Assembly: GCA_029260735.1 (NCBI GenBank)
Contig: JAJDCR010000015.1
Coordinates: 65,825 to 129,824 of the forward strand
Reading direction: 5' to 3'
Source: Planctomycetota bacterium
Lineage (GTDB): Bacteria > Planctomycetota > Uabimicrobiia > Uabimicrobiales > Uabimicrobiaceae
DNA length: 64,000 nucleotides
Notes under the pieces: model-generated
The model's input: the letters and a program-made list of their open reading frames with translations, nothing else
What the model was told of the DNA's origin: nothing
Database searches by the model: none
Shown here: in pieces, positions 11,550 to 63,678 of the stretch
Layout of the letters: every line of letters begins with the position of its first letter
Numbering within the stretch: position 1 is the stretch's first letter
Program-made: the position numbers and the translations under genes

Positions 11550-11576
11550 AAGCTTCCTTGCTAAGCAAGGAAGCTT
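11550..11576 (+). terminator. Rho-independent terminator
   Basis: Perfect 12-bp stem AAGCTTCCTTGC/GCAAGGAAGCTT with a 3-nt loop, 8 nt after the stop of the Hsp70-like gene. Confidence 0.6.
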
Positions 11577-11608
11577 ATCTGAAATTGTTATTAAGTACTA
11601 TATATGTT

Positions 11609-11700
11609 GGAGGGCGAGGCTCTTGCCGAGCAGGAGATGTGCCTTGCTCGGCAGTATGTTATCTTCGCACATCTCCTGCGCGGCAGGAGCCTTGCCCTCC
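11609..11700. repeat. GC-rich long imperfect hairpin (34-bp arms)
   Basis: GGAGGGCGAGGCTCTTGCCGAGCAGGAGATGTGC pairs with GCACATCTCCTGCGCGGCAGGAGCCTTGCCCTCC with 3 mismatches. It is ~65% GC in a ~38% GC background and generates several overlapping spurious ORFs on both strands. Confidence 0.6.
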
Positions 11701-11779
11701 ATCTTAGGTTTAAAATTAAAAATACACCGCGATACTACTCGCCAATTACCCTTCTTTATTATTCTAGAGGGAGCACTCC

Positions 11780-19604: not shown

Positions 19605-20302
19605 TTGAATAAAGATAAAGACAAAAAGAAAAAAGGCAAAGGGAAACCAAGGAACAAGCATGACCTTGGCTACAAACAATTGCTCTCCTTCATTGAAATG
19701 TTTCGCCAATTAATCCAAGGCTATACCGATGAAGATTGGAAGGAAAAACTCGACTACTCAAGAGCACAGCGCGTCGATAAAGAGTATGTTTTACCGGACT
19801 TTAAGGAAAAAGAATCGGATATCGTTTACAAAGTCCCTTTAATAGACAAGGAAAAAAACGAAAAGGAAATTTTTTTGTTTGTCTTGATTGAGCACCAGTC
19901 TACTGTTGATCATTCTATCGCTTTTCGTTTACTTTTCTACTTAACTCATGTTTGGTATGATATGAGCTGTGGAAAACCTTTATGCAGTGGGTCGTTCGCT
20001 TTTTTCAGGATCGAAATGATCCTTCCAACAAAGACATAATTGACGATTTTGATTTCGAAAACAAAAATAAAGAGGAGATTACTACCATGATCGAAACTTT
20101 ACCTGGTCGACTGGTTGAACAAGGTTTCGTTAAAGGCTTGGCAAAAGGAGAGGTTTTAGGCTTGCTTAAAGGTATGAATATTATTTATCCTGGAATTATT
20201 GAAAAATATAAAGAGAGAGTTGATAATGCTCAAGCTGAAGCAGAATTTCAATCTCTCGAAAAAGAAATTCTCCAAGATATAGAGTCTCGCAAGAAAGACT
20301 AA
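19605..20302 (+). pseudogene. Degraded Rpn/YhgA-family (PD-(D/E)XK, Transposase_31-like) recombination-promoting nuclease gene
   Basis: HDLGYKQLL N-motif and LIEHQSTVD (compare Rpn LLEHQSTPD). The gene is split by a frameshift into ORFs 19605-20039 and 19982-20302. The C-terminal GxxxG repeats (VEQGFVKGLAKGEVLGLLKG) are Rpn-like. The total length (~232 aa) is shorter than intact Rpn proteins (~300 aa). Confidence 0.65.
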
Positions 20303-23874: not shown

Positions 23875-26800
23875 ATGAACTTTTGTATTGCTTATCCAGT
23901 TGATGGGGGCACCCCCGAAGATTCCCACATTGTTTTGGTTCGTACTTATCGAGGGCAAGAACATATTTGCCAAGGAGGAGGGCGCTCTGGTCTTCGAAGT
24001 AATTCAGGAGCTGCTTTTATTTGGGAACGAGTCGCAAGCTCTTTCCAGCAGAAGTATGCTTTGGAGTTTTCCCCTCTTCCGCTCTCAAATCCCCACATAA
24101 AACCAGAAAATTTATCCGACTGCGGTGACTCTGATGCTCTGGCTTGTGCTTTAGCTGTAGGTCTAAGGTCTAGTCAAAAAGAAGAGTATCTTGATCCTAC
24201 AAAATATCCTTTGATTCTGGCTTCTTGTTCTTTTCAATTAACAAACAAGAAACAAGGCTTACGTGGACTAAAACTAGAAGCAGTTACTGATGAAAAGAAT
24301 TTAAAAAGCTCTCTGAGATCTCTCCAAAACAAATGGGCCTGTGCCTGTAACAACAAAGCCAAGGCTCTCATTCTACATAACGACGACGCTTATTTACTAG
24401 CAGACTTTATCAATGTCCCAGTATTTCCGGTAAGTAGTAGTTCTCTAACTCAAATACTCTCTAAAGACTCCCCATTACCAGTTCTTCTTTCTTGCCAAAA
24501 AAAAGATATGTCTCTAGTCGCTAATAATCTAGATATAGACGGTTCTATTTTCCAAGATTCATCTTCCTCTCATTCGGAGAAATTTCCTCCAGAACCTTTC
24601 CGCTTCTTATCTCCTTTTACAAAAAAAGAAGAGAGTATTTTTTTTGGTCGTGAACAAGAAATACATAAGTTAGCAAATACTTTACTTGACCGAGATAGTG
24701 CTTCTGTTTTTTTACTTTTCGGTCAGTCTGGAGTGGGTAAATCCTCTTTTCTTTTTGCAGGACTCATACCTTATTTAGAAAGACAGTTGTGCCAAGTTGT
24801 TTATTTCTCAGGACAAAATTCTTTCGAAAGCTCTCTGGAAAACTTACCTCCGAAAAAAGAAGGTTTCTGGATTAAATTTAGTTCTCTTTGGAATAATAGT
24901 TCTAGTCCAGAGGAGATAAAAAACTCATGGCTAGAAAAAGAGGAGGAGTTAGAGCAACCTCTGATTGTTATTATGGATCAATGGGAAGAAGTTTTAGCAG
25001 AGTCATCACAATTCAGTAAAGACTGGGGAATGTTTTGTCAGACTCTGGAGTGTATCTTTGGTGACTATGACACAAAACCTCAAGGACGATTGATTCTTTC
25101 TTTTCGTAAAGAGTGGCTTTCTCTCGTCGAAAACTCTCTATCTAATCTCCGCCCTTTTCCAGGCAATTTTTTCTTACGTCCTTTGAGTAGAGAAGGTATT
25201 ATTCAAATAATTGAGGGATTAGATAAGAATGAAGAGCTGAGAAATCACTACTCTTTTTTTTGGGAGCCGGGCCTCTCAGAAATTATGGCAGATGGTTTTC
25301 TGACAGACCATGAATCTCCCTTGGCTCCATTTTTACAAATCCTCCTTAGCTTAATGTGGGAAGAATCTGATACCCAAAAACGAAAAGTTTACTTTACCTT
25401 AGACCTCTATCACAAAGTGATCCGCCAAGGCATTTTTGCTAAATATGTCAAGCAACATATAGAAAATCTTGCTGTAGATCGAGAAACGGCGATCAATTCT
25501 GGACTCATTTTAGACATTTTAGACTTTCATATCTTTCTAAACCGAGCTCAAGAACGTTCCCTTGAAGAATTAGAGAAACAATACTCTCATCTTCCTCCTG
25601 GGCTACTGAAAGACATTTTAACCACATTAAAAAATAGTTATTTACTCTGTGATTCTTCACCGGAGAGAGGGAAACGTGCTCAGTTTATTCGACTTGCTCA
25701 TGACAGTTTAGCTCCCATTATTCATGAAGAGGTAAAAAAATCCCACCGAATCGGACAACGATCTCGTCGTATACTAGAGAGCCAAATAGTCAGTTGGCGA
25801 GATAATCACCATGATCTCTTAAGTAATTTTGACTTAGAGACAATTGAACAAGGTCGTCCAGCAATGCGAGCATTAAGCCAAGAGGAAGAAGAGCTTGTTA
25901 GTTCTAGCCATAAGATGGGAGGTATATCTTCTCTTATTGCAACAGTTCAAAGTAATAGTGATAATCAAGCTAAGCTCAAAGCATTGTCGGCAATGCGTCT
26001 TTATCCAGAGAGACACGAGGTCATTATCCCCGCCATGATAAAGCTTATGGAAAAAGCACATGAAGACGACCAAGTAAAAAGAATAGCTGTTGAAATCATT
26101 GGAGAAATGGCAAAGGAAGCAGGCGTCACCATTCCTATACTTGTTGACTTGGTTAAAGCAGGTGAAAACTATCTTTTTGAAGCGATGAATGCTCTCATTA
26201 GAATGGAAGAAATCTCTCGCCCAGCTCTTCAGGTACTTTGCCAAAGTTCACGGGAAAGTATTCGCTTAAACGTTGTTCGAGGTTTTTCTTTAGTCAAAAT
26301 AGAAGGATGCCTACCTTTCTTACTTAAAATGATTGAGAAAGAATCTAGTGGTAAAGTAAAAAAAGAAGCCTACAAAGCTCTAGGGGTAACTTTAGGCTTT
26401 CAATTTCATGAAGAAAAAAAAATCACTAGCAATAACGTTGAGTACTGTTTAGGCCACTATGTTCACGAACAAACAGGAATGGAATTCGTTTTTTTTCCCA
26501 GCGGATCTTTTATGATGGGAAGTGATGAGCGCGATAACTTAGCAAGTGAAAACGAAAGGCCTCGTCATTTTGTTTCCCTGTCTCCTTTCTTCATTTCTCG
26601 TTATCTTGTCACCCAGAAAATATGGGAAGATGTTATGGGGAATAACCCCTCTTACTTCAAAAACGAGCATAAACCAGTAGAAACTGTTACTTGGCATGAT
26701 TGCCAAGAGTTTTGCCAAAAAACAAAGCTACAGCTACCGAGCGAAGAACAGTGGGAGTATGCTTGTCGAGGAGGAACAACAAGTCGTTTTTATTGGGGAC

Positions 26801-27180
26801 CAAATTGGGATCGAAGTAAAATTAACAGTGCTTCCTATTGGGCCAAAGAAGATCTTGTTACCCATACCCAGTGGAAAGAATTTGGTTTTCTGGAAAAATG
26901 GAAAGAACTCAAAGGAGAAACTTCTCTTGTGGGAAATTTCTCTGTCAATCCTTTTGGTTTGTATGATATGCTAGGAAATGTCTGGGAGTGGTGCGAAGAC
27001 AACTGGTCACCGTCTTATGAAAAAGGAAAAAATGCTCCTACCGGAAATGGCCTAGAGCGAGCTTGTCGAGGAGGCTGTGCTTGGTATGCCGCACAAGATT
27101 GTCGGTGCGCTAGCCGAGTAGGAGACTCGGCTGATAACTGCGATTGTTATTTGGGTTTTCGAGTAGTGAAAAATATTTAA
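23875..27180 (+). CDS. Multidomain protein: unknown N-domain - P-loop (STAND-like) NTPase - HEAT repeats - FGE-sulfatase (SUMF1/EgtB/PvdO-family) domain
   Basis: Walker A LLFGQSGVGKSSFLF preceded by FFGREQEIHKL. HEAT/PBS-lyase-like repeats (LSAMRLYPERHEVIIPAMIKLMEKAHEDDQVKRIAVEIIGEMA). C-terminal FGE-domain motifs (RPRHFVSLSPFFISRYLVTQ, ETVTWHDCQEFCQ, LPSEEQWEYACRGG, LYDMLGNVWEWCEDNW, GFRVV). Confidence 0.75.
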   Translation: MNFCIAYPVDGGTPEDSHIVLVRTYRGQEHICQGGGRSGLRSNSGAAFIWERVASSFQQKYALEFSPLPLSNPHIKPENLSDCGDSDALACALAVGLRSSQKEEYLDPTKYPLILASCSFQLTNKKQGLRGLKLEAVTDEKNLKSSLRSLQNKWACACNNKAKALILHNDDAYLLADFINVPVFPVSSSSLTQILSKDSPLPVLLSCQKKDMSLVANNLDIDGSIFQDSSSSHSEKFPPEPFRFLSPFTKKEESIFFGREQEIHKLANTLLDRDSASVFLLFGQSGVGKSSFLFAGLIPYLERQLCQVVYFSGQNSFESSLENLPPKKEGFWIKFSSLWNNSSSPEEIKNSWLEKEEELEQPLIVIMDQWEEVLAESSQFSKDWGMFCQTLECIFGDYDTKPQGRLILSFRKEWLSLVENSLSNLRPFPGNFFLRPLSREGIIQIIEGLDKNEELRNHYSFFWEPGLSEIMADGFLTDHESPLAPFLQILLSLMWEESDTQKRKVYFTLDLYHKVIRQGIFAKYVKQHIENLAVDRETAINSGLILDILDFHIFLNRAQERSLEELEKQYSHLPPGLLKDILTTLKNSYLLCDSSPERGKRAQFIRLAHDSLAPIIHEEVKKSHRIGQRSRRILESQIVSWRDNHHDLLSNFDLETIEQGRPAMRALSQEEEELVSSSHKMGGISSLIATVQSNSDNQAKLKALSAMRLYPERHEVIIPAMIKLMEKAHEDDQVKRIAVEIIGEMAKEAGVTIPILVDLVKAGENYLFEAMNALIRMEEISRPALQVLCQSSRESIRLNVVRGFSLVKIEGCLPFLLKMIEKESSGKVKKEAYKALGVTLGFQFHEEKKITSNNVEYCLGHYVHEQTGMEFVFFPSGSFMMGSDERDNLASENERPRHFVSLSPFFISRYLVTQKIWEDVMGNNPSYFKNEHKPVETVTWHDCQEFCQKTKLQLPSEEQWEYACRGGTTSRFYWGPNWDRSKINSASYWAKEDLVTHTQWKEFGFLEKWKELKGETSLVGNFSVNPFGLYDMLGNVWEWCEDNWSPSYEKGKNAPTGNGLERACRGGCAWYAAQDCRCASRVGDSADNCDCYLGFRVVKNI

Positions 27181-33000: not shown

Positions 33001-34203
33001 ATGTTTGGAAAATCATTCATCTCACTCCTTGTTTTTCTGGCTATAGGAGGACTTGTCGCAAACGAAGTCTCTTATCCTCAACAAGAAGTCGAAAAAATCT
33101 TCTCTGAACTTGTTGATGAAGATGCCCATGTGCGCGATAGTGCCACCGAAAGAATGGCCCTTTTGGGAAAAGTCGCATTCGACCATGTTGTCGAAAAATT
33201 TCCTCAAGTAAATTACCAAGTGCGACGACAAATTGTTACCATACTCGATAAAATACACACTCCCCAAGCATTAGATTTACTTTTTTTAGCTCTTCAAGAT
33301 CCCGACGAGGGAGTGAGAAACCGAGTAGCCTTGGCTTTACTTAATCTTTCGGAAAGCCCCGATAAAATTATCACACGCTTAGATGCGGTTGAAAATCCTC
33401 GCTCTGAAGTCCGCTCAACGATTCAAGATATAAAGAATAGTTTTCTTTACAAGTTTGTCGAAATAGAATTGGCCGAAGAAATTTCTCCCCAAGGAGGCTA
33501 TGGATTTTATGATGGGCAATTTGACAGCTTAAAAGAAGTAGGCGAAACAATCATCGCTCCTTTATCAGATATCTTTTGCAATGGAAACTATAGCTACATA
33601 CAAAAATCACTCAATGAAGGCCATCAATTAGAGAAACAATTCAAGATGAGAATGTTAGCAGGGCAAGCTCTCGGTGAATTGTCTGAAATAATGAGCAAAG
33701 GAAACAAACGAATGGTTATTCGTAGACTAAGAGGTTTAGCTTACAGCTCTCTTGGTGATGAAGAAATCCGCCGAATTGCCTCCTGTGCCCGCTATAAGCT
33801 CGGCGATAAGATTGAATTTGAAAGACAAGTAAAACAACATCTAAAAAATATTAGCCTAACCCAAACTCCAGACAGTTACCGCGAGCTCGCTATGCTCTAT
33901 CTTCGAGTCAACGAGTCGGAAAAGGGCATACTGTATTTAAAAATGTCGATTTCCCTCTGCCAACAGGCCGGTCTTGAGAATGAAGCAGGCCTAGACTACT
34001 ACAACCTAGCATGCGCTTACTCTTATATCAATAATATAGAGGAAGCCATCACTGCTCTCCTAAAAGCGGTTGATCTAAAGTATGAAGATGTTGAGTGGAT
34101 GAAGCAAGATGGAGATCTGCGCAACCTCCACGACGACCCTCGTTTTCAGGAGATTATTAAGAAGCTGGAGGAGAAAAAGGAGCTACTGAAGAGGAAGAAG
34201 TGA
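33001..34203 (+). CDS. Secreted HEAT (PBS-lyase-type)/TPR repeat protein
   Basis: Signal peptide (MFGKSFISLLVFLAIGGLVA). HEAT-like repeats (DEDAHVRDSATERMALLG...QVRRQIVTILDKI...DEGVRNRVALALLNL). C-terminal TPR-like helices. Confidence 0.6.
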   Translation: MFGKSFISLLVFLAIGGLVANEVSYPQQEVEKIFSELVDEDAHVRDSATERMALLGKVAFDHVVEKFPQVNYQVRRQIVTILDKIHTPQALDLLFLALQDPDEGVRNRVALALLNLSESPDKIITRLDAVENPRSEVRSTIQDIKNSFLYKFVEIELAEEISPQGGYGFYDGQFDSLKEVGETIIAPLSDIFCNGNYSYIQKSLNEGHQLEKQFKMRMLAGQALGELSEIMSKGNKRMVIRRLRGLAYSSLGDEEIRRIASCARYKLGDKIEFERQVKQHLKNISLTQTPDSYRELAMLYLRVNESEKGILYLKMSISLCQQAGLENEAGLDYYNLACAYSYINNIEEAITALLKAVDLKYEDVEWMKQDGDLRNLHDDPRFQEIIKKLEEKKELLKRKK

Positions 34204-34355
34204 CCGCTGATTAAACGGATTTTTCGGATTAATATGATTTTTGTTTGTGATTTTTGGATTGGTTGGGTGCGCTTCGCTTTTGATGAGTTTGCTTAATTGT
34301 CTGAACCGCTGATTTAACGGATTTTTCGGATTACGCTGATTTTTGTTCGTGGGAA
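34204..34355. repeat. Tandem ~50-bp direct repeat pair (102-bp period)
   Basis: CCGCTGATTAAACGGATTTTTCGGATTAATATGATTTTTGTTTGTG and CCGCTGATTTAACGGATTTTTCGGATTACGCTGATTTTTGTTCGTG, beginning immediately after the stop codon at 34203. Confidence 0.7.
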
Positions 34356-34474
34356 TCTAGGATTCTATACGCTGAAAACGTTACACATCAGCACAGGATA
34401 AAGTGAGCCAAAGTCAAATGGTATCCTGTGTCACTGTTGAAATAAGGATAGGTATTGGGATGTGACCCAAGAGA

Positions 34475-35220
34475 AAAAGTATCCCCGAAGGGGATTAACG
34501 TGAATAGCCCTGGGTTTCCAACCCAGGGGAAATTTAAGAACACCCCCACAGATCGCCCTGAAGGGGCGAAACATCTTTAGTGTCACCCCTTCAGGGTGAA
34601 TCTGAGACGAAATATATTTTCCCCTGGGTTAAAAACCCTTACTTTTATACACATAATTTTGTGAAACGAAAATTTGGTATTTTAAAATTTAAGAGTTTGT
34701 GTGATCGTTATACGTCATTACGTTAGGTTATCGAATACGTCGGAAACCCCGATGTTATCGGGACCTGACATATTACATCCCTCCGGGATACCAATTGTGC
34801 ATTGAGACAGGTTAGTTTTATTCTAAGCAAATATTATTTGCATTGAGTTTTAGTGGTATTAATCGCATCCAGAAATGTTTTATTATCGCGGATATTGTTA
34901 CGTCAGATTTCTCTTGGCGATGTGTCATTTACATGATTGTTTGATAATCACGTACAGCTACCTACGCTTAAACAAATCTAATGTGCCGCAATTATGCCAC
35001 TCGAACCTAACATTAATGGCATTTACTTAGAATAAAACTAACCTACCTTAATGCACAATTGGTATCCCGATAGGGATGTAATATGTCAGGCCCCGATAAC
35101 ATCGGGGTTTCCGACGTATTCGATAATCTAACGTAATCATACCAAGAAGTTAAACTTGTGTATAAGAGTAAGGGTTAAAAACCCAGGGCTATTCACGTTA
35201 ATCCCCTTCGGGGATACTTT
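34475..35220. repeat. ~745-bp foldback: nested near-perfect inverted repeat (arms ~230-300 bp, ~160-bp unique centre), no ORF
   Basis: 34475-34527 is the reverse complement of 35172-35220 (AAAGTATCCCCGAAGGGGATTAACGTGAATAGCCCTGGGTTT...). 34605-34654 matches 35150-35180. 34690-34832 is the reverse complement of 34993-35140 (..TACGTTAGGTTATCGAATACGTCGGAAACCCCGATGTTATCGGGACCTGACATATTACATCCCT..) with >90% identity. The left arm carries an extra 77-bp insert (34528-34604) that has its own 11-bp perfect hairpin. Confidence 0.8.
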
Positions 35221-35365
35221 TCAAAATTCTCTATTCTTATTTCAACAGCAGTTGAGCCAAAGTCCTCCAGGGAACACAGTACTTAGCACGGTTTTTAATA
35301 ATCTTTGTCAAAAACTATTTCAGATAAACCTCAGGGAACAACAGTCAAACTAAGGAGCAATCAAT

Positions 35366-36487
35366 TTGAAAAAAACGCTTGTCTATCTATTCTTCCTTTC
35401 TCTTTTATCCTCTCTCCTCTATGCCGACCTAGCTTCGCAATACGAGTCGGCTTATCGTTTAGCCCGCGATAAGGAGGCTCTGAATTTTTCAGACGCAACA
35501 GCGCAGGCTTGGAGTGAAGGTTTTTTGCTGAAAAAAGCGGTTTTTTCGGGAATCGGTTTGCTTGCACAGTATGAGGAAGCAAGTCAATTTGCTTTGGCTG
35601 AGGAAGGCTTGCGTTTGTCCTTGGAAGAAGCGGATCAGTGGGCGAAAAAACTGTTGATTTTGCGCGGGCAAATCGGGGCGGATGCTAGTTTAAGAGATGA
35701 GCTAAATCGTTTTCTAGAAGAAGTGTTTTTAGAGGAAGAAGAGGCTCTGGAGTGGTCTTTGGAGTTTTTTCAATCCGATGCTCCTCTTTATTCTCGCCAA
35801 GGGCTTCTAGAGCGATATACCGATGTCTACTCTTTTGCCCGTGAGAATATCTTTTTTTCTTTTACTCACGAAGAGGCCTTGAAATTAGCGAAAGACTTTA
35901 TCGGGCAACGATTCTACTTCCAACCAGGAATTCCTCTTTTAAGCCAGTATGTTCTCGCCTACAATTTTGCTTTTTCTTCTGAAGGACTGCGCATGACAGA
36001 TGAAGAGGCCCGTGCATGGGCAGAAGAATTTGTCTTAAGCCGAGGTGCTCTAAACCCTAGCCAGAACTTGGAAAATCAATTTCAAGATGCAGAGAATTTT
36101 GCCTTTGCCACAGGAGGCCTAGAAAAAAATAGAAACGAAGCTCGGGATTGGGCTGTTGTCTATATTCAGAAAAAAGGATTGCCTGATATTTCGATTAACC
36201 TCTTCCGACAATACCGCGAAGCCTACTTCTTTGCTTACAACGGACAGGTTCTTTCTCTCATTCGTAAAGTTAGAGATGCTCCGCCGGGCGTTTTTTTGAG
36301 CGATGAAGCAATGAAGTGGTCCCAAAAATTTATTGCCCAACGTTCCGAAATTAAGGGAGAAGAGGATCTTTTAGAGAAATACTTTCAGGCTCTTAATTTT
36401 GCTTACTCTAGCGAAGGCTTGAAGCTTGAAATAGAAGCGGCGCGGGCTTGGGCTATCGGTTTTTTAGAGAAGGAGGAAGTACGATGA
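35366..36487 (+). CDS. Secreted tandem-repeat protein (about six 40-45-aa repeats, motif QYxxAYxFAxxxEGLxxxxEEAxxWA)
   Basis: TTG start with a perfect TAAGGAG RBS 9 nt upstream. Signal peptide (LKKTLVYLFFLSLLSSLLYA). The repeat is visible by eye. The stop overlaps the next gene's ATG (ATGA). Confidence 0.6.
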   Translation: MKKTLVYLFFLSLLSSLLYADLASQYESAYRLARDKEALNFSDATAQAWSEGFLLKKAVFSGIGLLAQYEEASQFALAEEGLRLSLEEADQWAKKLLILRGQIGADASLRDELNRFLEEVFLEEEEALEWSLEFFQSDAPLYSRQGLLERYTDVYSFARENIFFSFTHEEALKLAKDFIGQRFYFQPGIPLLSQYVLAYNFAFSSEGLRMTDEEARAWAEEFVLSRGALNPSQNLENQFQDAENFAFATGGLEKNRNEARDWAVVYIQKKGLPDISINLFRQYREAYFFAYNGQVLSLIRKVRDAPPGVFLSDEAMKWSQKFIAQRSEIKGEEDLLEKYFQALNFAYSSEGLKLEIEAARAWAIGFLEKEEVR

Positions 36488-37281
36488 AAATTATTATCTG
36501 CTCTTTATGCCTCACTCTTTCCCTACTTGTCGGGCAAGAGAAATCAGAAAAACTTTTAATCCCAGGATTCCGTTTTTTAGAGACAAAAACTTACCACTGC
36601 ATTAAACAAAGCTACAATATCGATATATATAAGCATAAGCAAACAGGAATGACCTTTTCTTTGATTCCTCAGGGAGATTTTTGGATGGGAAACGAAGGAA
36701 TTGATAAGCGAGAAATACCTGTTCATAAAGTCTCAGTTTCTTCTTTTTTACTTTCCCAAAAAGAAGTCTCTCAACAAGTTTGGCAGCAGGTTATGTCCAG
36801 TAACCCTTCTCTGAATCAGGGAAAAAGTTTACCCGTTGAAAATGTTAATTGGTTTGAGTGCCAAGAGTTTTGTCAACGTACAGGCCTTAAGTTGCCTAGT
36901 GAAGCCCAGTGGGAATACGCTTACCGAGCCGGAACAAAAACTTTGTATTACTGGGGAGAAGAAGACGGAAATGCTTATGCTTGGCAAGGAGAACTCACCT
37001 CTCCCACCCAAGAAGTCGGGCAAAAGAAACCCAACGCCTTTGGTCTTTATGATATGAGTGGCAATGCTTGGGAATGGTGCCAAGACACTTGGCATTGGAA
37101 TTACTACGGGTCTCCTAAGACAGCAAAGGCTTGGGAAGGTGGCAACGGTCTTTTTCGAGTATACCGAGGCGGAGGATTGGGAGTTTCAACTGTTTACGGC
37201 TCAGCTAGTAGCCGCTCTTGGTTTATAGCTGAGCGTAAATGGAAACAGTTGGGTTTTCGGGTTGCTGCTTATTTAGAATAG
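36484..37281 (+). CDS. Secreted FGE-sulfatase (SUMF1/EgtB/PvdO-family) domain protein, likely non-catalytic
   Basis: ATG 36484 overlaps the upstream stop and has a GAAGGAGGAAG RBS. Signal peptide MKIIICSLCLTLSLLVGQ. FGE-fold motifs (GMTFSLIPQGDFWMG, ENVNWFECQEFCQRTGLKLPSEAQWEYAYRAG, LYDMSGNAWEWCQD, RVYRGGG, GFRVA). It lacks the paired catalytic Cys of true FGE. Confidence 0.8.
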   Translation: MKIIICSLCLTLSLLVGQEKSEKLLIPGFRFLETKTYHCIKQSYNIDIYKHKQTGMTFSLIPQGDFWMGNEGIDKREIPVHKVSVSSFLLSQKEVSQQVWQQVMSSNPSLNQGKSLPVENVNWFECQEFCQRTGLKLPSEAQWEYAYRAGTKTLYYWGEEDGNAYAWQGELTSPTQEVGQKKPNAFGLYDMSGNAWEWCQDTWHWNYYGSPKTAKAWEGGNGLFRVYRGGGLGVSTVYGSASSRSWFIAERKWKQLGFRVAAYLE

Positions 37282-39448: not shown

Positions 39449-42400
39449 CTAATTTTCTTGCATCAGCTCTTCATTAAAGGGAGAGGCATCCCAAACTCGA
39501 ATTGTCTGATCATAACTCGTTGAAATAATTTTATAACCATCTGGAGAAAAAATGCAAGAGGTAACTCTATCTAAATGACCATCCAAAGTCAATATAGCTG
39601 TTTTTTCTTCTCGTGGAGTATTATTAGTGGCATCCCAAATTTTTATTTTATCGTCCATACTACCTGTCGCAACGCGTCTTCCATTGGGGCTAAAAGAGCA
39701 GCATAAAAGATTGCGGGTGTGACCAATAAAACGAGTAATGATTTCTTGCTTTTGGACATCCCATAAAAGTAAAGAATCCAAAGTTCCTTCAGAAGCAGAG
39801 ATTAATTTTTTACCATCTGGACTAAATTCTATTTGATTGACAGGATATTTATTGCCTTGTAAAACACCTTGAACTTTATCTGCTTCTAAATTGTAAAGAT
39901 ATATACGAGAGTCTTCTCCTGATGCAGCTAAAATTTTGCTGTTAGGATGAAAAGCACAAGTATTAACATCTGCTCGGTGTTGGTATTTTTTGATAATTTT
40001 TCCTGTTTGCACTTCTCTTATGATGACTTGATTATCTTTTCCCGCTGAGGCTAAGAGCTGTCCATCAGGGCTAAAAGTACAAGTCAAGATTTGTCCGGTA
40101 TGCTCTGACCATTTATGTAATATTTTTCCTGTTTTTAAGCTCCATATACCAAGAGTTCTATCATTGCCTGCTGTGGCTAAAATAGAGTTCACCAGATTAA
40201 AATCCATTTGATTTACAGAAGAAAGATGCCCAGCAAAGGGTATAGTTTTAGGAGTTTTCTCAATAAAGTCTTTTCCCTCAGGAAAAGACCAAACCCTTAC
40301 TCCGAAATAGACTCGCGGGGAAGCTGCCAATATTTTACCATCGGAACTAATTCCACAGGAATATAAGACGCTTCCCTCCTTATGAAAAAGACTCGGGTGT
40401 TTTCTCTCTTTGGCCTTAATATTCCAGAGCTTGAGTCTGCCTGTTGCACTGACAGAAACAAGCTGTTCTCCTCTAGAAGTATAAACACAGCGATTTATTT
40501 TGCCGACATGCCCTCCCAAAATAGATGTAGGCTGAGGTTTCTTAATATTCCACAGATAAACATTGTGGTCGTAACCTCCAGAGGCAAAGGTTTCACTATC
40601 GGGAGAAAATACAACTGTCTTAACTTTATCGGAATGTCCCACGTATGTTCGAAGAAGCTTTCCTCTTTTATAATCCCAAAGTCGGATCGTTCGGTCATAA
40701 CTTCCTGAAAGTAAATATTTTCCATCAGGACTAAAAGAACAGCTTTCCACTTTTTCTCGATGGGCTTTCAAAATATGAACTAGTTGGTAGGTCTGAGCAT
40801 CCCAAAGGGCAATAAGAGCATTGTCTCCTGTTGTAGCAAAAAACTTTCCATCAGGACTAAAGACACAACTAAAAATGTTGCTATTCCAAGTTTGGTTGTT
40901 AACTGTTTTTAGTTTTTTAATAGTTTTACCTGTTTTGATATCCCAAACAAGAATAGACTCTTGATTAGGGATAAGAGTTTCATTGTCTCGCGCTTCATAG
41001 GTAGATAATATGCTTTTTCCATCAGGAGAGAAAAGGCAAGAGGTCACTGCTTTTTCAAAAGTTAGAATTTTTTCTGCTTGTCCTGTTTGTACATTCCATA
41101 AAATGATTTTTCCATCAGCTCCTCCTGTCGCTAATAGCGTTCCATTGAGATTAAAGTCACAGCTAGTTACCTTTTGAGAGTGACCTTTAAACACTTGAAC
41201 GATTTTTTCTTTAACTAAATCAAAGAGTATAACTTCATTCATCATACAAACGGCAACAATGTTGCTCTCTGGCTTCATTTTACACTCATCAGGGTGACCT
41301 CGAAGAAGCCAACTCTTATCTTCATAATGAATCCGTCGTTGAATCCAGTTCCATTCCCAATCTCGAAGATCATTTTGATGTTTTTCCAAGTGCTCAAGGA
41401 GATTAAGAGCATCTAAGGTTTTATTTTCGTCAGCGTATTTGTTTGCTAAGATAATATTCGCATAGTAGGCCGAGTCAGAAGCTTCTTTCCGGGCCTGCTC
41501 TTCTTTTCGGAGAGCTTTTTCTTTCTCCTCTATCGCGATTAAAGTAATTTGTCTCTCATCTTCTACTTTTTGCTTTTCTCGCTCTACGTTTTTCTTTTCT
41601 TCCTTTACTTTTTCTCTTTCTATTTCGGCCACTCTTTGGGCTTCAACAGCAACATTTCTTTCATGTTGAATTCCCAGAATAAAGAGAGTTAGACTAAGGG
41701 AAAAAACCATTAAAGCAATTGCTATAACCAAAGATATATTTCGATTGCGAATAAGCCATTTTTTTATTTTTGTCGATGTTGTGGGAGGTTTTGCTTTGAT
41801 CGGTTTGTTGTCTAAATAGTTTTGGAGTTCTTTGCTTAAAGACCTGGCACTGGAATAGCGTTTTTCTGGTTTTTTCTCTAGACATTTTAGGCAAATGGCT
41901 TCCAGTTCTTTAGGAATGTCGGGGTTAAGAAGAGAAGGAGAGACAGGTTCTTCTCCGTAAACCTGCCGCAAAATATTTAAATATGTTTCCCCTTGAAAAG
42001 GACCACGCCCGGTTAACACTTCATAAAGAGTTGCTCCCAGAGAATAAACATCTGCTCGATGATCCACATTTCCATCCGCTTGTTCAGGGGGCATATAAGC
42101 AGGAGTTCCCATCATACCACCGGTTTGAGAGAGTTTTTCATCGCTATCAGTAATTTTTACTAGCCCAAAATCCATAATCTTAGGCTCATTCTCTTTTGTT
42201 AGCATAATATTTGAAGGCTTAATATCTCGGTGAATAATGCCATTTTCATGGGCAAGATGAAGAGCATCGCAGCATTTTTGGATAATTTTAACAAAGAGAG
42301 AAAGCTTTAATTTTTTCTCTCGGATAGCATTAGAGAGTGTTCCTCCCACAATATGCTCCATTGTGAAGTAGTTTTGGGGTTCGCTTCCTACTTCATAAAC

Positions 42401-42952
42401 TTCCACAATATTCGGATGTCTTAATTGAGCGGTGGCTTTTGCTTCTCTCAAAAAACGTTTAATTTGTATAGGATGCAAATTTCCTTCCGATAAAACCACT
42501 TTCAAAGCAACAGTTCTCTCCAGCTTAGTATCATAAACCTGATAAACCGCTCCCATTCCTCCACGACCTAATTCTTTTTCGATTCGATAATGAGCAAACA
42601 TTCCCATTGTTTGAACTTTTTGATGTGAGGAGATGTGAATAACTCCTTGGCACTTTTCACAAGTAATCGTATTGCCTGGAGTATTTTCTTTCGGGAGAAA
42701 ATAGATTTCTGAGCAAGAGGGACAAGTAAATATATGTAAGCTCATTTTTTCAAATATTTCACTCATCTTTTGATTACTAGCATACCCCTTTGATACTAAG
42801 ATAGAACTTAAGTTTGCACTTCTCCCTGTTTTTTCAACCTTGTCCAGTATTTGCATGCACTCTTGAACATGTTCTCCTTTGATTAACTTATAATCAATAA
42901 GTACACTGGAAAGGAGCTTGTCTTTTTGTGATGCCATAGGGCGTGTCCTCAT
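39449..42952 (-). CDS. Ser/Thr protein kinase - TM - coiled coil - WD40 beta-propeller protein
   Basis: Cys-rich N-terminus (CPSCSE...CEKCQG), Hanks motifs (LGRGGMGAVYQ, ALKVV, HRDIKPSNIML, DFGLVK, PPE), a TM helix, an EK-rich coiled coil and >12 WD40 repeats (GH...WD/WN). The true start is probably the second Met (42937, MASQKDK), because the first codons lie inside the repeated motif at 42938-42958. Confidence 0.9.
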   Translation of the reverse strand: MRTRPMASQKDKLLSSVLIDYKLIKGEHVQECMQILDKVEKTGRSANLSSILVSKGYASNQKMSEIFEKMSLHIFTCPSCSEIYFLPKENTPGNTITCEKCQGVIHISSHQKVQTMGMFAHYRIEKELGRGGMGAVYQVYDTKLERTVALKVVLSEGNLHPIQIKRFLREAKATAQLRHPNIVEVYEVGSEPQNYFTMEHIVGGTLSNAIREKKLKLSLFVKIIQKCCDALHLAHENGIIHRDIKPSNIMLTKENEPKIMDFGLVKITDSDEKLSQTGGMMGTPAYMPPEQADGNVDHRADVYSLGATLYEVLTGRGPFQGETYLNILRQVYGEEPVSPSLLNPDIPKELEAICLKCLEKKPEKRYSSARSLSKELQNYLDNKPIKAKPPTTSTKIKKWLIRNRNISLVIAIALMVFSLSLTLFILGIQHERNVAVEAQRVAEIEREKVKEEKKNVEREKQKVEDERQITLIAIEEKEKALRKEEQARKEASDSAYYANIILANKYADENKTLDALNLLEHLEKHQNDLRDWEWNWIQRRIHYEDKSWLLRGHPDECKMKPESNIVAVCMMNEVILFDLVKEKIVQVFKGHSQKVTSCDFNLNGTLLATGGADGKIILWNVQTGQAEKILTFEKAVTSCLFSPDGKSILSTYEARDNETLIPNQESILVWDIKTGKTIKKLKTVNNQTWNSNIFSCVFSPDGKFFATTGDNALIALWDAQTYQLVHILKAHREKVESCSFSPDGKYLLSGSYDRTIRLWDYKRGKLLRTYVGHSDKVKTVVFSPDSETFASGGYDHNVYLWNIKKPQPTSILGGHVGKINRCVYTSRGEQLVSVSATGRLKLWNIKAKERKHPSLFHKEGSVLYSCGISSDGKILAASPRVYFGVRVWSFPEGKDFIEKTPKTIPFAGHLSSVNQMDFNLVNSILATAGNDRTLGIWSLKTGKILHKWSEHTGQILTCTFSPDGQLLASAGKDNQVIIREVQTGKIIKKYQHRADVNTCAFHPNSKILAASGEDSRIYLYNLEADKVQGVLQGNKYPVNQIEFSPDGKKLISASEGTLDSLLLWDVQKQEIITRFIGHTRNLLCCSFSPNGRRVATGSMDDKIKIWDATNNTPREEKTAILTLDGHLDRVTSCIFSPDGYKIISTSYDQTIRVWDASPFNEELMQEN

Positions 42953-42958
42953 TCAGCT
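42938..42958 (+). repeat. Solo copy of the small-element terminal motif AGGGCGTGTCCTCATTCAGCT
   Basis: Matches the left TIR of the element at 53480-53500 with one mismatch, and the following ~25 nt (TTTTTTTACTTTTTTTAG) also resemble the element core. An inverted partner AGGACACGCCCT lies at 43730-43741. Confidence 0.6.
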
Positions 42959-43129: not shown

Positions 43130-43729
43130 ATGTATGAGTATAGTTATGCCATCCAAGATGTTTTGGATAATGTGGGCCAAATTGAAAAAATTGTATGGGA
43201 CATAAAAGAGGGGACTTTTCCCTTGTCTTTTTTTGATGAACAAGAAAATGTTGTTGATCTTTTTCCTGTGGATTGTGAAGGGGAATGCGTAGAATCATTG
43301 AGTTTGGATGATCAGCTGACACTCATTGAGCAAAATATAGAAGTTATGTCATTTATTCCCCCAGAAGATCCGCTAGAGTTGCGCCTAGTGATTGAAAGAG
43401 GGGCCTGTCAAATAGTCCATTATTTGGCTTTGCAACAAGACCTTCGTGAGCTCTTTCAGCTGAATCAGTTTATAGAAGAGAATGAACTAAGCTTTTTAGA
43501 CTTGGTTTCATCTATGTTTTCTTCTTCTGAATTTATCAATTATGCTCAGGTCGAAGTGACAAATAATTGCACTCTCTATCAATATCAAAGAAAACAGAAT
43601 CAAGAAAAGTTTGAAATCTATAAATATCGCTTACGCAATAGTCATCTTTATTTTGAAAATTTTAAAAATAAAGAATCATCCTCTAAAAAGGTTTTATCTC
43701 CCCCCAAAAAAATAGTTATTATAAATTAG
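43130..43729 (+). CDS. Hypothetical protein (199 aa), no recognisable domain
   Basis: ATG start and coding-like composition. It lies within the 42938-43741 segment bounded by the inverted 12-mers. Confidence 0.45.
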   Translation: MYEYSYAIQDVLDNVGQIEKIVWDIKEGTFPLSFFDEQENVVDLFPVDCEGECVESLSLDDQLTLIEQNIEVMSFIPPEDPLELRLVIERGACQIVHYLALQQDLRELFQLNQFIEENELSFLDLVSSMFSSSEFINYAQVEVTNNCTLYQYQRKQNQEKFEIYKYRLRNSHLYFENFKNKESSSKKVLSPPKKIVIIN

Positions 43730-43768
43730 GACACGCCCTAGTATCAGAGTTGAAATTTGCTTCCTATC

Positions 43769-46700
43769 TTATCTTCTTTTACGAAAACGCGATGTTACTA
43801 CTCCTGTCGCTTCGTCTTTGGACATATTTAGCATAACAAGAGCGGCCTCAATATCCTTTTTGTCAAAAGATTGTAAAGCATAAGAAGAGAAAATTTTCTC
43901 TTCTTTTTCTTCCTCTGTTAAACCCCATAGTTTTTTCCGATTTGCCATCCCCAAAAGAATAGGTAGTGCTTTAGTATCACCAATTTCACCAAGGGTTCGA
44001 CAACAAGCCCTTTTTGCACTTAAACTGCTAGTTGTTTCCAGAGTTTGAATGATACTTTCTGTTGCTTCTGCGCATTTTATCTTGCCCGCCATCATAACCA
44101 TTCTTCGCTGGATATTTTCAGGGATTTTTCTCTTTAAAGTTCGAATACAAATAGGATATTGCTGAGCTGGTTTCCACCCTTCTATTATAGACATAATATT
44201 GTTTTGGATATCAAGGTTCGGGCTAGAGAGGAGTATTTCATAAAACTTTTCTTGCTTTTCTGTCAGATCTTCTAGTACATCCAGAAGTCTATTAATAACT
44301 GCAGCATCTTGCTTTGGATGTATCAATCCATCCAGTTTTTCATCGACATTTCCTTGCCAACTCCTAAGTAGTTTTGCCAGGGTTTTTCTTTCTTCTTGAT
44401 TTGTATTTTTCTGAATCTCATCTAGAAGAATAGAAGAGGATCTCTCACCTAAAGTTTCTAAAATATCATGAGAAAAAGCTTTTTGGGCTTTATCCGAAGA
44501 GAAAAGATCTTGAGCAATTTGATTAAACTCTACTTCTTCTATGAGCTCATCTAAGGTTTCGTTAATGCCCACACCTAGATCACTTCGATCTCTTTGTTTA
44601 ATTAAACCTCGTAGAAGATCATGTGCTTTCTCGAATTCTTTTTCTCTATAGAGGTTTGTTAGAGAGTATTTGGCTATATCCAACAGCTTTTGGTGAACGG
44701 TTAGGTCTGGTTCAAGAGATAGAGCTCTTTGTAATTCAATGTTAAGAGAAACCAGTAAGAGGTTTTTTACATCATGAGGAAGTCTTTGTTTAAGCTCTGA
44801 AAGTAACTCACAAACTTGGAAGCGAACTCCTGCGATCTTGGAACGTAAATTGCTTGATATTTTTGTGACCAAAGTTTGAAATTCAGTTTGATCTTGCTTC
44901 TGCAGAGTGATCATAAGTTCTTCCATTCCTTCAACCATATCAGGATTAAACAGTTCCTCTTCGTCCATTCGCATAACCAAGTTGAGTTTTTCAGCTAAAT
45001 CCAATTCCACCCATGATTTTTCATCTCCTCCAGCTAATTCTTCTATTTCTAATTCTGGTTCCATTAGCTCTTGGATTTGCATCTCTTTGTATTCTTGGTT
45101 ATTGATGATAATATTATTGGTTTTGTGACGTTGGATAAAATCAGGCCAATAGTTTTCATCTTTTTCTGCATTAGCTGGTTGAGCTAATTGATGAGAAAAA
45201 TCGAGTAACTCTTGTAAAGAAACTTCTTTACGTAATGTACAACTGTGAATATTTTGAGTATTAAAAATACGCTGTATCACAAAAATTTGATTTCCAAAGA
45301 TATGTGGGTTCGCCATATAATTCTCGACAAGAAAGTCATTGTTAGCAATGGCAAAGCTTACTTTTTCTCGCTTTTGGAAAAAAGAATCCAGCGCCTTGGT
45401 TAAAAGCTCCACAGAAAAATTGAGAAGTTTGCTTTGAGAGGGATAGAGTTGAATGTTCTCAACAGAAGCGCAGAGATAACGAATTATGTCTCGCACTAGC
45501 CGAATACTTTCTTCTCCTAAAGTATCGTCCTCAAAAGACATCTCATCAGAAGCCTGTTCTAAGTCTCCCGAAGCTTGCTTGTTAGAAACATACACTTTTT
45601 GTAAAATATCAACAGATTTAATTTCTGCTTCATCTAAGAACTCAGTCCAGTAGTCAGGATTAAGAACAATTTTTTGTCCAGGCTCACCTAAAGCCCTCAT
45701 AATTTTTTCTAGCTCATAGCTCTCAATGTTAGCATCTAAAGTCATACTGGAAATATAGTGTCCTCGTAGTAGCTGATAAAACTCTCTCACAATGGGTGTA
45801 TCTTTTTCTAACTCTGCGTTATTCAAAAGGAGATACTTGTCTTCTATCTTAGTTATAAACCCCGTTAAGTTTTTCCAAGTTTTCTCCATACTTTTGTGAA
45901 GAGCCTTCACAGAGCTAGTGATTAAACTACTTCCTTCTGGGTATCTTTGAACTTGTTGTACTGATAAGGTAAAACTGTGCATCCACGACTTTAGATCCGA
46001 AATATCATTTTCGCTAAGCTCTACAGATTCAACAAATACTCTTTTCATACGACGGTTCAAATTCCCATTAAACATGTCCAGGTCTTCATCAGGCTCAAAA
46101 AGCTTTCTGCGTTCTTTTTCCCGCTTAGTAACCTGTGGATCTAAAGGAGAATTACCATAGCGAGATGATCGGTTGAGATGATGAGTTAAACCATGGCCTT
46201 CCCGACCGTCTCCTACCTTGTAGCGATTCATGAGTTGACTAACTTTTTCATGTACTCGACTTCGCATACTTTCATCAGCAATCTCATAGTAAATAAGATT
46301 CTGAAAGCTACTTTGTTTAAATCGAAAAACATCTTCCTCCGTTTCTTCGACTAAACCTAGTTGCTTTGCTTCTTCTATGAATTGACGTACTTGATCACCG
46401 GAGTATTCACTCGTTTCTTCTAGATAGTTAAAAGAAAAAGGATCTCCGATAACAGCAGCTTGCTGAATAAGAAGAGAAGATTCGCTTTGAAACTCTTTCA
46501 CTAGTTCTAAAATTAATTCTTCTAAACTGGCGGGAAGATCACCTTCTTCTATATCAAAAAACCATATCTCGCCTTTTTTTATTAGTTTTTCTCGATAGTA
46601 AAGAAGAGTTAAAGCATTTTCAATATAAGAAGCATTTCCTTGAGATAAGTCGTTTAAGATCCGAACTGTTTCAAGTGGATCGTAATCTTCTAAAACAGTA

Positions 46701-49700
46701 CTTAAAAAGCCCCGGATTTCTTCACTCGATAATCCTGGAAGAGACATCTCTTGCCAATTAGCTCTAGACCTAAACCGTTCTTCTAGTTTAAAAAAAGGAG
46801 TTTCGTCCACAATTAAATCGGTATTAATGGTTGCAATAACTTGTATGTTTACTTTCTGAATTCGAAGAAAATAATCGAAGACATAAAGAGTAACTTGATC
46901 TACATATTGAATATCATCAAGTAAAATAGCTAACTTTTCATCTTTTGCGATGTACTCTAAAAGAAAGCATATTCCTTCGTAAGTTGTTTTACGTATTTTT
47001 TCTAAGGGGACATTTGGAGATATTTTACTCGTTTTTACAGGGCGTAAAAAACGCAACAACGGTTTTAAGAAATGAATTTCTTCATCCCACATTTGTTTGA
47101 CAGCTTCTTCAATTTCCCCTGGTTTATCCATGAAGTATTGGTCTATAATTCTAGCAACACAACTATAAGGCTCCTCTATTTCAGCTTCTCGGCAACTATG
47201 GTAAAAGGCAAAACCAGCAAGTGCTTGGATTTCCCGCAAAAGCTTTGTCTTTCCGTACCCACGAGGAGAAGAAAACAATAAGATTTTTGCCGTTTCGGAG
47301 ACCAAAACACTTTTGGCTTGCTCTATTTCTTTTTCACATCCGAGCAATACAGGAGAAGAAAAATCAACAGCGGTAAGTACTAAGTTAGTACTAGAAGTAG
47401 GTGTTACAATAGCATTGCCACCTTTTTCCTTCACTTGAATTAAAGATTCTTGTCCCTTATCAATTAAATCATTGACCTTGTCATTTTCGCCAGAAAAAGC
47501 CAAAACAACACCGCTTAAACTAAGCTTTATTTGAGTTTCTGCAGCAGATGGATCTCCCTGAAATTTTTCTACATACTTGCGGGTTGTTTCTGCTAAGAGA
47601 AAAGATTTTCGAGAATTGGAGTAAGGCATCACTAAAGTAAAAGTTCCTGTACTTATCTCTCTATAAATATGCGCTCGGCCTTCAAGGGCAGAAATTAAAG
47701 CATCGAGAATATTTTCAAGAATTTCTTGGGTTTTAAGAGCCCCATAGAATTGAACATAGCTCTCAAAGTTATCTAAGTCGAGAATTATGAAAGATCCTGG
47801 AGTGTCTGTATCGAAGAGCTCTTGTAATTTTTCCTCTAGGTGCTCTCTTCCTTCTAGATGAAATACCTCTTTTTTTTCTTCTGATTCCATCATTTGAGAA
47901 TCTTCAGAAGACGAACTTTCTAAAGGATACTCTTTGTCTTGAAAACCTTTGTAGGAAACGTTTTTGACAGAATCCTCCTCAGAATTCTCTTCAGAAGATG
48001 GACTTTCAGAAGATCGACTTTCCAGAGGATACTCTTTGTTTTGAGAACCTTTGTAGGAAACGTTCTCAATAGAATCATCTACAGGAGACTCTCGAGAAGA
48101 TGGACTTTCAGAGGGATGCTCCATCTTTTGAAGATCTTCGAGAAACGAGTTTTCTTCCGGAACTCGTTTTTGGGTATCTTTCTCTTTGGAGTCTTTAAGT
48201 AAGCGCTCTGTTTGAATGAAAGCAGAGTGCCTCATAGTGTCAAAGAAAGACTTTGTTTCTCCAGATTCACAATTCGCAGAATCTGGAAAAGGATCCTCGC
48301 CATGTATTCCCGTTTGATTATTTGATTTAGTGATACTTCCTGTTTGTTCTGTATCCTTTTCCTTAGGTAAAGGAACTCTTTTTATCTTTTTAATGGAAGA
48401 AGATTTTAATTCATCTAATTTTTTTTGGGCATTGAGTTGAACTAGTTTGGGATCTATTTTCTCCGTATTACTTGGTCCCGATGTTATTTCTCTGGGCTCG
48501 CTAGGAGGACTCACTTTGAACATTTTTCTTGAGCGAGAGGCAGCCAAGTTAGCAGGATCTATTTTCTCTGTTGAGCTAGGGCCAAAGGTAATATTTTCTT
48601 TTGAAGAAGGAGCTTTTGATCTAATACCTGGATTAGAAGGTGGGTCTTGAGCTTTCAATCTTTTTGTATTGGAAAATGATGCGGTGTCATCCGTTCGCTG
48701 AGAAGAAGATTTAAATCTAATTCCTGTGAATGTTTTACTTGGGTCTAAGTTACTTGTATTACTAGGACCGGAAGTTATCCCTTGTCGCTCAGTGCTTGAT
48801 GGATTTTTACTAGGGGGAGAAATCATTATCGTTGGATCTGGCTTTTCTCCCACATCTAATTTTTCCAAATCTGTTTTACTAGGGGGAGAAATCATCATCG
48901 TTGGATCTAGTTTTTCTCCCGCATCTAATTTTTTCAAATCTGCTTTACTAGGAGGAGAAATCATCATCGTTGGATCTAGTTTTTCTCCCGCATCTAGTTT
49001 TTTCAAATCTGCTTTACTAGGGGGAGAAATCATCATCGTTGGATCTGGCTTTTTCCCCACATCCAATTTTTCCAAATCTGTTTTACTAGGGGGAGGAAAC
49101 ATGACTGTGGGATCAATATTTTCCTCAAGATCAAGCTTTCCATCTGTCTTAAATATCTTTACAGCCGCTAATTCTTCTGGAGAAAATTTTTCCGTCGAGC
49201 CACCTTCTTGATTAGCTATTTTATTTTCTAGAGCAGACCGAGGTAAAATTGCTTTGGCTTTTTTATCTCCAAACATTTTCTTAGTAGTGTTCTCTGGAAT
49301 AGAGGGGGAAGCGGGACTTACCACATCTGCCTGTGGACCACTTGATTGTAAGAATTTTTCCAGATCTTGCTTCATTTCTCGAGCGGTTTGGTAGCGCATT
49401 CTCTTATCGCGATGCAGTGATTTTAGGCAAATCTTTTCAAGAAAAGAAGAGATTTCAGGCTTTTTGCTACGCGGAGGAATGATATCTCCGTTACTTAGTC
49501 TTGCCAGAATAACATCAATAGTATCTCCCTGAAAAAGAGTCTCTCCTACAATCATTTCGTATAAAACAGCTCCCAAGGAATAAATATCTGCGCGAGAATC
49601 TATTTTAGCATCACCATGAGCTTGTTCATAGGACATATAAGAGATAGTTCCCATGATAAGACCTGTTTGAGAAATAGCAGGGACATCGCTATTGAGAAAC

Positions 49701-53479: not shown

Positions 53480-53590
53480 AGGGCATGTCCTCATTCAGCT
53501 TATTTTTTGTATTTTTTTAGCAATAGTAAGGAAACTGCCTTGAACTCAGTATTGTTAAGTCGTGAGATGGGCTGAATGAGGACACGCCCT
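53480..53590 (-). repeat. ~110-bp small element with 20-bp terminal inverted repeats (copy 2, opposite orientation to copy 1)
   Basis: AGGGCATGTCCTCATTCAGCT at 53480-53500 pairs with AGCTGAATGAGGACACGCCCT (as reverse complement) at 53570-53590. The reverse complement of its core (TCACGACTTAACAATACTGAGTTCAAGGCAGTTTCCTTACTATTGCTAAAAAAATACAA) is near-identical to the core of copy 1. Its right end abuts the stop codon of the dynamin-like gene. Confidence 0.7.
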
Positions 53591-58142: not shown

Positions 58143-58160
58143 AATTTGGGTGAAAAAGTT

Positions 58161-63519: not shown

Positions 63520-63678
63520 CATTGAAGAAGAAAAGAAGCTCACGCAAAGACGCAAAGATCGCAAAGAAGAATATAAAATAATATTCCTGTTAATGAAATG
63601 AAACTTCTCCCTATTTATCTTTGTATTTATTCTTTGCGATCTTTGCGTCTTTGCGTGAGCTTCTTTTCTTCTTCAATG
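63520..63678. repeat. Very long near-perfect hairpin (~47-bp arms, ~54-nt loop)
   Basis: CATTGAAGAAGAAAAGAAGCTCACGCAAAGACGCAAAGATCGCAAAGAAGAATA pairs with TATTCTTTGCGATCTTTGCGTCTTTGCGTGAGCTTCTTTTCTTCTTCAATG with a single 3-nt indel. Confidence 0.8.

Follow-up and report, generated by a model that had tools for sequence, protein, structure and literature searches.

The MIC231 elements derive from the IS231 subgroup of the IS4 family of insertion sequences; they have CAT ends, are flanked by duplications of 10–12 bp and often carry passenger genes. The ERIC, Correia, RUP and REP/BIME families are gene-less, hairpin-rich imperfect palindromes of intergenic DNA, which are sometimes nested in one another and sometimes serve as terminators or mRNA stabilisers. 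The non-autonomous MIC231/IS231 cassettes of Bacillus cereus are cited as IS4-family derivatives in 'IS4 family goes genomic' (PMC2266710), whose table gives CW------Y---CA-A--W- as the end consensus of the IS50 subgroup, with target duplications of 8–9 bp for this subgroup and ~10 bp (range 7–13 bp) for the IS4 family. The outside end of Tn5/IS50 is CTGACTCTTATACACAAGT, as listed in an oligonucleotide table (PMC3347997). Here we analyse a 64-kb stretch (64,000 nt) of the planctomycete contig JAJDCR010000015.1, hereafter called the window, in which the intergenic spacer at 34204–35365 holds a large inverted repeat. This repeat consists of two nested elements, and the inner one (34638–35172, 535 bp) is very likely a non-autonomous miniature inverted-repeat transposable element (MITE) of the IS4 family, IS50-subgroup-like and with long foldback arms, which lies within a second palindromic repeat, i.e. 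ordinary selfish DNA. One proposal of a first-pass annotation of the sequence, that of a foldback-type non-autonomous mobile element, is borne out by the IS50-like ends, the flanking target-site duplication and a second insertion site in a relative.

The inverted repeat is real and far beyond chance. Repeat search and gapped alignment place it at 34434–35248 (815 bp), with the best arm blocks at 34475–34517 versus 35221–35179 (43/43 positions), 34717–34782 versus 35137–35072 (64/66) and 34783–34832 versus 35070–35021 (45/50). The single-strand DNA fold has an energy of −249.2 kcal/mol, compared with −83 ± 6 kcal/mol for shuffled sequences (z = −27). The AT-rich spacer contains 7 of the 23 GC-rich perfect hairpins of the window and all four of its ATCCC-N(2–7)-GGGAT hairpins, which are absent from the eight loci fetched for comparison. 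A near-perfect foldback of ~745 bp had been described here; the foldback stands, but the length is 815 bp and the pairing is near-perfect only block by block. The single 77-bp insert attributed to one arm is an underestimate, as the left arm has ~111 extra nt (34518–34628) and a further ~33 nt (34681–34713), and the unpaired centre spans ~121 nt (34867–34987) rather than the ~160 bp given for it (34833–34992). A reading of the ~111-nt extra as a small independent insertion between CCCTGGGTT repeats is disfavoured by the IS50-like ends, in whose light this stretch is more readily accounted for as the centre of the outer palindrome. The 815-bp repeat is therefore two nested elements and not one palindrome: a foldback inner element lies between the halves of an outer palindrome, so that both read as one inverted repeat.

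The boundaries of the inner element carry the assignment. The left terminal inverted repeat, CTTACTTTTATACACATAA (34638–34656, + strand), agrees with the Tn5 outside end at 14 of 19 positions, and the right one, CTTACTCTTATACACAAGT (35154–35172, − strand), at 18 of 19. With at most three mismatches allowed, the right end is the sole match to the Tn5 outside end in the 64 kb, where 0.01 would be expected by chance. Both ends fit the IS50-subgroup consensus at all seven conserved positions, including the 5′-CT terminus. Directly outside them lie two copies of GGTTAAAAACC on the + strand, one abutting the left end (34627–34637) and the other abutting the right end (35173–35183), which form a target-site duplication. 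The flanking repeat is direct, since AAAAA has the same polarity on both sides and an inverted repeat would need TTTTT once; this direct orientation accounts for a small gap in the first alignment of the arms. The target formed a small hairpin of its own (GGGTT-AAA-AACCC), which leaves three possible lengths for the duplication, 9, 11 or 13 bp, according to the placement of the terminus.

When the inner element and one copy of the duplication (34638–35183) are deleted in silico, the reconstructed empty target site joins TTTTCCCCTGGGTTAAAAACC to CAGGGCTATTC and forms a hairpin with a 9-bp stem, the twin of the hairpin at 34508–34528. The same deletion yields a 269-nt palindrome, whose halves are identical at 107 of 117 positions (91.5%) and whose minimum free energy as DNA is −99.9 kcal/mol. 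The left part and centre of this outer palindrome lie at 34434–34637, with hairpins at 34481–34495, 34508–34528, 34553–34569 and 34583–34599, and its right part lies at 35184–35248, with the hairpin ATCCCC-TTC-GGGGAT at 35201–35215 followed by a T-rich run. The ends of the 269-nt element (CTGTTGAAATAAGRATAG) abut only a shared CA. Further out, the 12-nt direct repeat TGAGCCAAAGTC occurs in two copies on the + strand that agree at 12/12 positions, at 34404–34415 (18 nt outside the outer palindrome) and 35253–35264 (4 nt outside it); it could have been produced as a target duplication when the outer element inserted, or belong to a duplication of earlier date.

The arms of the inner element are unequal. 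The left arm (34638–34866, + strand, 229 nt) has the longer form, which is shared by the element end in a related contig described below (L006), and the right arm (34988–35172, − strand, 185 nt) has a ~44-nt deletion relative to both. Over 176 aligned positions the arms are identical at 162 (92%), with 14 substitutions; 53 nt are found in the left arm only, and 53 + 9 nt are unaligned. The unique centre (34867–34987, ~121 nt) contains no open reading frame (ORF), and no start-codon ORF of at least 60 aa lies wholly inside the 535-bp element.

The inner element resembles IS50/Tn5 in its 19-bp ends (18/19 and 14/19), the 7/7 fit to the consensus, the 5′-CT terminus and a target duplication of about one helical turn. 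It differs in having no transposase gene and in its size, 535 bp compared with 1350–1550 bp for the subgroup (PMC2266710), and its inverted repeat reaches ~185–229 nt inward rather than 19 bp. There is no similarity beyond the 19 bp, and the host belongs to an uncultured low-GC lineage. With the MIC231 cassettes the inner element shares its shortness, IS4-family ends, the lack of a transposase gene and presumed mobilisation in trans, whereas its ends are of IS50 type, it has no passenger gene and its foldback arms are long. The outer element, in turn, is like the ERIC, Correia, RUP and REP/BIME repeats a gene-less, intergenic, hairpin-rich imperfect palindrome; those families, however, have many dispersed copies, while one copy of the 269-nt element is known. 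The units of REP, BIME and REPIN sequences recur in many intergenic regions, whereas within the window the ATCCC hairpins are confined to this spacer.

Relatives of the locus show the spacer in other states. In the TARA contigs L007 and L008, the same two genes are adjacent (32% and 38% protein identity) and separated by a 213-nt spacer with no repeat, indicating that the long spacer is a lineage-specific expansion. The Logan contig L006 (run DRR328265) carries the same operon, with proteins 88–98% identical and fourfold-degenerate sites 66–76% identical, and starts just 116 nt upstream of the orthologous gene. About 45 nt of this leader align with an internal part of the window arms, finishing ...TGTGTATAAAAGTAAG, and the element end in L006, CTTACTTTTATACACAAGA, can be aligned over ~65 nt with the left arm of the window. 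This end is placed 41 nt before the start codon of the orthologous gene, at a site that differs from the insertion site in the window, and it abuts GGCCTCCGCTTAAAC, which aligns with native spacer of the window near 35326 rather than with the outer palindrome. At the L006 site (~35326) the window is uninterrupted, and the hairpins of the outer palindrome are missing from L006. On these alignments, the simplest reading is that related elements would have entered this spacer independently in two lineages, once in that of the window and once in that of L006. The L006 contig breaks ~75 nt inside the element, and its first 31 nt (of positions 1–116) do not align with the window, so the interior of this copy differs from that of the window copy. 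A break at this position fits, without proving it, a sequence that is repeated in that genome, given a short-read assembly.

Taken together, the spacer is best explained as having grown in two steps, each by insertion of a palindromic repeat without genes. In the proposed order of events, the 269-nt palindromic element (34434–34637 plus 35184–35248) would have occupied the spacer first, and the 535-bp transposon would then have inserted into the loop of a small hairpin of that element, CCCTGGGTT-AAA-AACCCAGGG, duplicating a 9–13 bp target. On the model of IS50/Tn5, the 19-bp ends may be bound and synapsed by a Tn5-like DDE transposase whose gene lies elsewhere in the genome and which would so mobilise the element in trans. 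The movement itself would be cut-and-paste excision followed by joining to staggered target cuts, as in IS50/Tn5 (PMC2266710). The partner would be a putative IS4/IS50-type transposase gene bounded by CTTACTYTTATACACA ends, and the inner element would presumably have no function for the host.

Several results weigh against the inner element being an IS50-type MITE. Its 185–229-nt arms far exceed the 19-bp ends of IS50, a length that speaks against a simple internal deletion within an IS50-like insertion sequence as its origin; the element rather resembles one end region duplicated in inverted orientation. If the terminus is set base for base as in IS50, the duplication is 11 bp, and a 9-bp duplication needs one extra C per end. 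There is no second copy of the inner element in the window and no IS4-family transposase among the window ORFs that were scanned. A 21-mer from the interior of the arm found no related copy in 185,579 species-representative genomes, and searches of JGI metagenomes with a 24-mer of the outer element and, guided by the protein, with the downstream gene returned nothing. The source contig, 161,972 bp long, was also assembled straight through the element, which argues against numerous nearly identical copies in that genome; combined with the empty genome and metagenome scans, it speaks against a large family of such copies.

The sole match to the 21-mer was a 23-nt sequence, GGAAACCCCGATGTTATCGGGAC, at 4589–4611 of CAZSHV010000018.1 (L005), from a metagenome-assembled genome of Bacteroides. 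It equals the window hairpin at 34742–34764 and has dissimilar flanks, and we judge it to be a chance or convergent hairpin sequence. Among viral contigs neither the inner-arm 21-mer nor a 20-mer of the outer element had a match, and a BLASTN search of phage and plasmid collections with the spacer found none.

The window also holds a second family of small palindromic repeats, so repeats of this kind are not unique to the spacer. Two 111-nt copies (1527–1637 and 53480–53590), bounded by 20-nt terminal inverted repeats AGGGCRTGTCCTCATTCAGC, sit in intergenic gaps beside gene starts. A third left end (42938–42957) and a weaker right end (43720–43739) bracket the ORF 43130–43729 (199 aa), which has no Pfam or NCBIfam match; the segment 42938–43739 may be a larger, gene-carrying relative of the 111-nt family.

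The same structure might have arisen at the spot without any transposition, through hairpin-seeded inverted duplications produced by template switching or hairpin-primed repair, the likeness to IS50 being a coincidence. The locus is indeed palindromic on at least three nested scales, and each arm contains related ATCCC...GGGAT hairpins in either orientation; in E. coli, interrupted palindromes reportedly promote inverted duplications centred on themselves (PMC3315005). However, local growth does not predict an 18/19 match to a transposase-binding end exactly at the boundary of the inner repeat, a flanking repeat that is direct rather than inverted, or the same end at a different site in L006, and we consider this origin unlikely. 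An artefact of assembly or library preparation, which the first-pass annotation had listed as an assembly artefact, would take the form of a foldback chimera or of contamination by Tn5 tagmentation adapters. The source is a metagenome-assembled genome and the ends do resemble Tn5 sequence; an artefactual foldback, on the other hand, would be an exact copy without a unique centre, and 14 substitutions, along with insertions and deletions of more than 60 nt in total, separate the arms here. The mosaic end carried by tagmentation reagents is CTGTCTCTTATACACATCT (PMC3347997), whereas the ends found here are of the outside-end kind, and the independent run DRR328265 holds a diverged copy of the same end in L006. 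We therefore regard an artefact as extremely improbable.

Two further explanations assign the repeat a function. In an invertible, phase-variable switch, recombination between the arms would flip the ~121-nt centre and toggle the operon of the secreted repeat protein and the FGE-sulfatase-domain protein. Arms of ~180 nt at 92% identity are adequate for homologous recombination, and the element does lie upstream of a secreted-protein operon. No recombinase or invertase was found among the annotated neighbours, however, and the centre offers only one weak promoter-like site (34862→34833, − strand, 9/12 in a sigma-70 scan); that scan gave 6 promoter-like sites in the region scanned, compared with 3.7 ± 1.9 in shuffled sequences. 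The terminator-like hairpins, which lie towards either outer end of the repeat, face outward (34495→34481 on the − strand, and a similar hairpin with a T-rich tail at 35201–35215 on the + strand) and would stop transcripts from the centre before they reached the gene, and in the distant TARA relatives a spacer of 213 nt, free of repeats, serves the expression of these two genes. The proposal of a switch accordingly finds very little favour with us. The same two hairpins, and the seven stable GC-rich hairpins in an AT-rich spacer, could instead speak for a large structured RNA, or for a divergent pair of small RNAs, with the arms transcribed outward to an ATCCCC-loop-GGGGAT hairpin and a U-run. 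The suggested comparison with Rfam 15 gave nothing credible: the window has no match at the gathering score, and in the spacer even E ≤ 10 yields no family beyond noise, the best sub-threshold match reaching 22 bits against a cut-off of 55. Moreover, the promoter-like sites differ in spacing from one arm to the other and in L006, the exact two-fold symmetry is typical of DNA-level repeats and not of RNA genes, and the outer hairpins are absent from L006, all of which makes an RNA gene highly unlikely. Inward-facing sigma-70 promoter-like sites in the arms were not relied on, their spacing being unconserved between the arms or in L006.

The stability of the repeat had been called remarkable on the grounds that SbcCD cleaves long hairpins and cruciforms. 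Long and closely matching arms increase the risk of hairpins and cruciforms, and long spacers and diverged arms reduce it (PMC7999016); PMC10164571 likewise describes spacer length and arm divergence as lowering hairpin formation and fragility. Like the long perfect palindromes on which SbcCD acts in E. coli, the nested elements could fold into a long hairpin when single-stranded. Those substrates have near-identical arms with little or no spacer, whereas the inner arms are 92% identical, are interrupted by insertions and deletions (62 unaligned nt) and are separated by ~121 nt. For two nested elements of this kind the claim is overstated: with interrupted arms, 92% identity and a ~121-nt spacer, persistence is unsurprising and no special stabilising mechanism is needed.

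The spacer as a whole (34204–35365, 1162 nt) extends from the stop codon of the ORF 33001–34203, a gene for a HEAT/TPR-repeat protein, to the TTG start of the ORF 35366–36487, which encodes a 373-aa secreted repeat protein and is followed by an FGE-sulfatase-domain gene, the latter two forming the downstream operon. It is the largest intergenic gap in the window, the runner-up being 346 nt. Its longest start-codon ORF is 65 aa and its longest stop-to-stop frame 73 aa (no frame of at least 74 aa), and the ten longest stop-to-stop frames (36–73 aa) have no Pfam match at E ≤ 1; the description of a noncoding 1.16-kb region without an ORF inside is thus upheld. An AAGGAG ribosome-binding site and the TTG start of the downstream gene can be read in the sequence at 35352–35368 (+ strand) and are kept in L006. 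ARAGORN found no tRNA or tmRNA. For an oriC or partition site, a role also raised at first pass, the surroundings give no hint: the genes on either side of the spacer have no tie to replication, and no clear turning point of the cumulative GC skew falls there.

At the upstream side of the spacer lies a 47-nt direct repeat, with one copy at 34203–34249 (+ strand), beginning at the last base of the upstream stop codon, and another at 34305–34351 (+ strand), 89% identical to it. Their starts lie 102 nt apart, 55 unrelated nt separate the copies, and the window has no third one. What had been noted as tandem repeats are therefore two direct copies that are not head-to-tail, and Tandem Repeats Finder reports nothing there. 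TGA precedes both copies, and CGGATT/GATTTTT motifs recur within them.

The neighbours in the window are ordinary chromosomal genes, including those for a nucleotidyl transferase, an SPFH protein, the HEAT/TPR protein, the FGE-sulfatase, Ser/Thr kinases, HtrA, MutS, GltX and others. By Pfam, there is no recombinase, invertase, integrase or IS4-type transposase among the flanking ORFs and most other large ORFs of the window, a scan that left out three large ones (39449–42952, 43769–50191 and 58146–61688). The nearest named relative of the upstream protein among the matches is a protein of 'Candidatus Brocadiae bacterium', and because it is only 36% identical, the host lineage is poorly sampled. 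In the loci of upstream-gene homologues at 36% identity (L001–L004) the gene order is lost, and these loci are uninformative. The FGE-sulfatase gene downstream of the spacer has a paralogous domain in a 1101-aa STAND-NTPase protein (23875–27180), and the two FGE-sulfatase domains, 10 kb apart, share 127 nt at 72% identity (26673–26799 versus 36831–36957).

Other repeats of the window lie away from the spacer. An intergenic inverted repeat with 52-nt arms (63520–63571 and 63627–63678, 98% complementary, 55-nt spacer) stands just after the ORF 62689–63489, which has an acyl-carrier-type PP-binding domain, and each of its arms contains three CGCAAAGA units. A perfect hairpin with a 12-bp stem (11550–11576) directly follows a 1255-aa ORF, and a GC-rich inverted repeat with 40-nt arms (11603–11706, 88% complementary, 24-nt spacer) lies in a 237-nt gap. 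The tandem repeats at 47903–48106 (102 nt) and 48806–49150 (69 nt) fall within the 2140-aa ORF 43769–50191 on the − strand and belong to a coding repeat protein. At 19605–20302, two short ORFs overlap (144 and 106 aa), the first of which matches the N-terminal half of a YhgA/Rpn-family 'Transposase_31' nuclease; this is probably a disrupted Rpn-type gene.

For the operon downstream of the spacer, the insertions add ~800 nt between it and the upstream sequence, and terminator-like hairpins now stand in front of it. These are possible effects, and the biological consequence of the insertions is probably small. There is little chance, in our estimate, that the nested palindromes have been co-opted to set the expression of this operon, whether as a long structured leader, an insulator or an invertible cassette driven by RecA; in a milder form of the same idea, the lineage may harbour a Tn5-like transposase whose recognition sequence is nearly identical to the Tn5 outside end. 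As a rule for recognising such loci, the inner boundary of a large foldback should be checked for transposon ends and for a direct flanking repeat. That a planctomycete-like lineage of low GC content and sparse sampling, an unusual host, carries IS50-type ends (18/19) suggests that it also has a cognate Tn5-like transposase. If this is true, a planctomycete lineage related to Brocadiae and equipped with a Tn5-like transposase would be a natural and distant source of IS50-type specificity.

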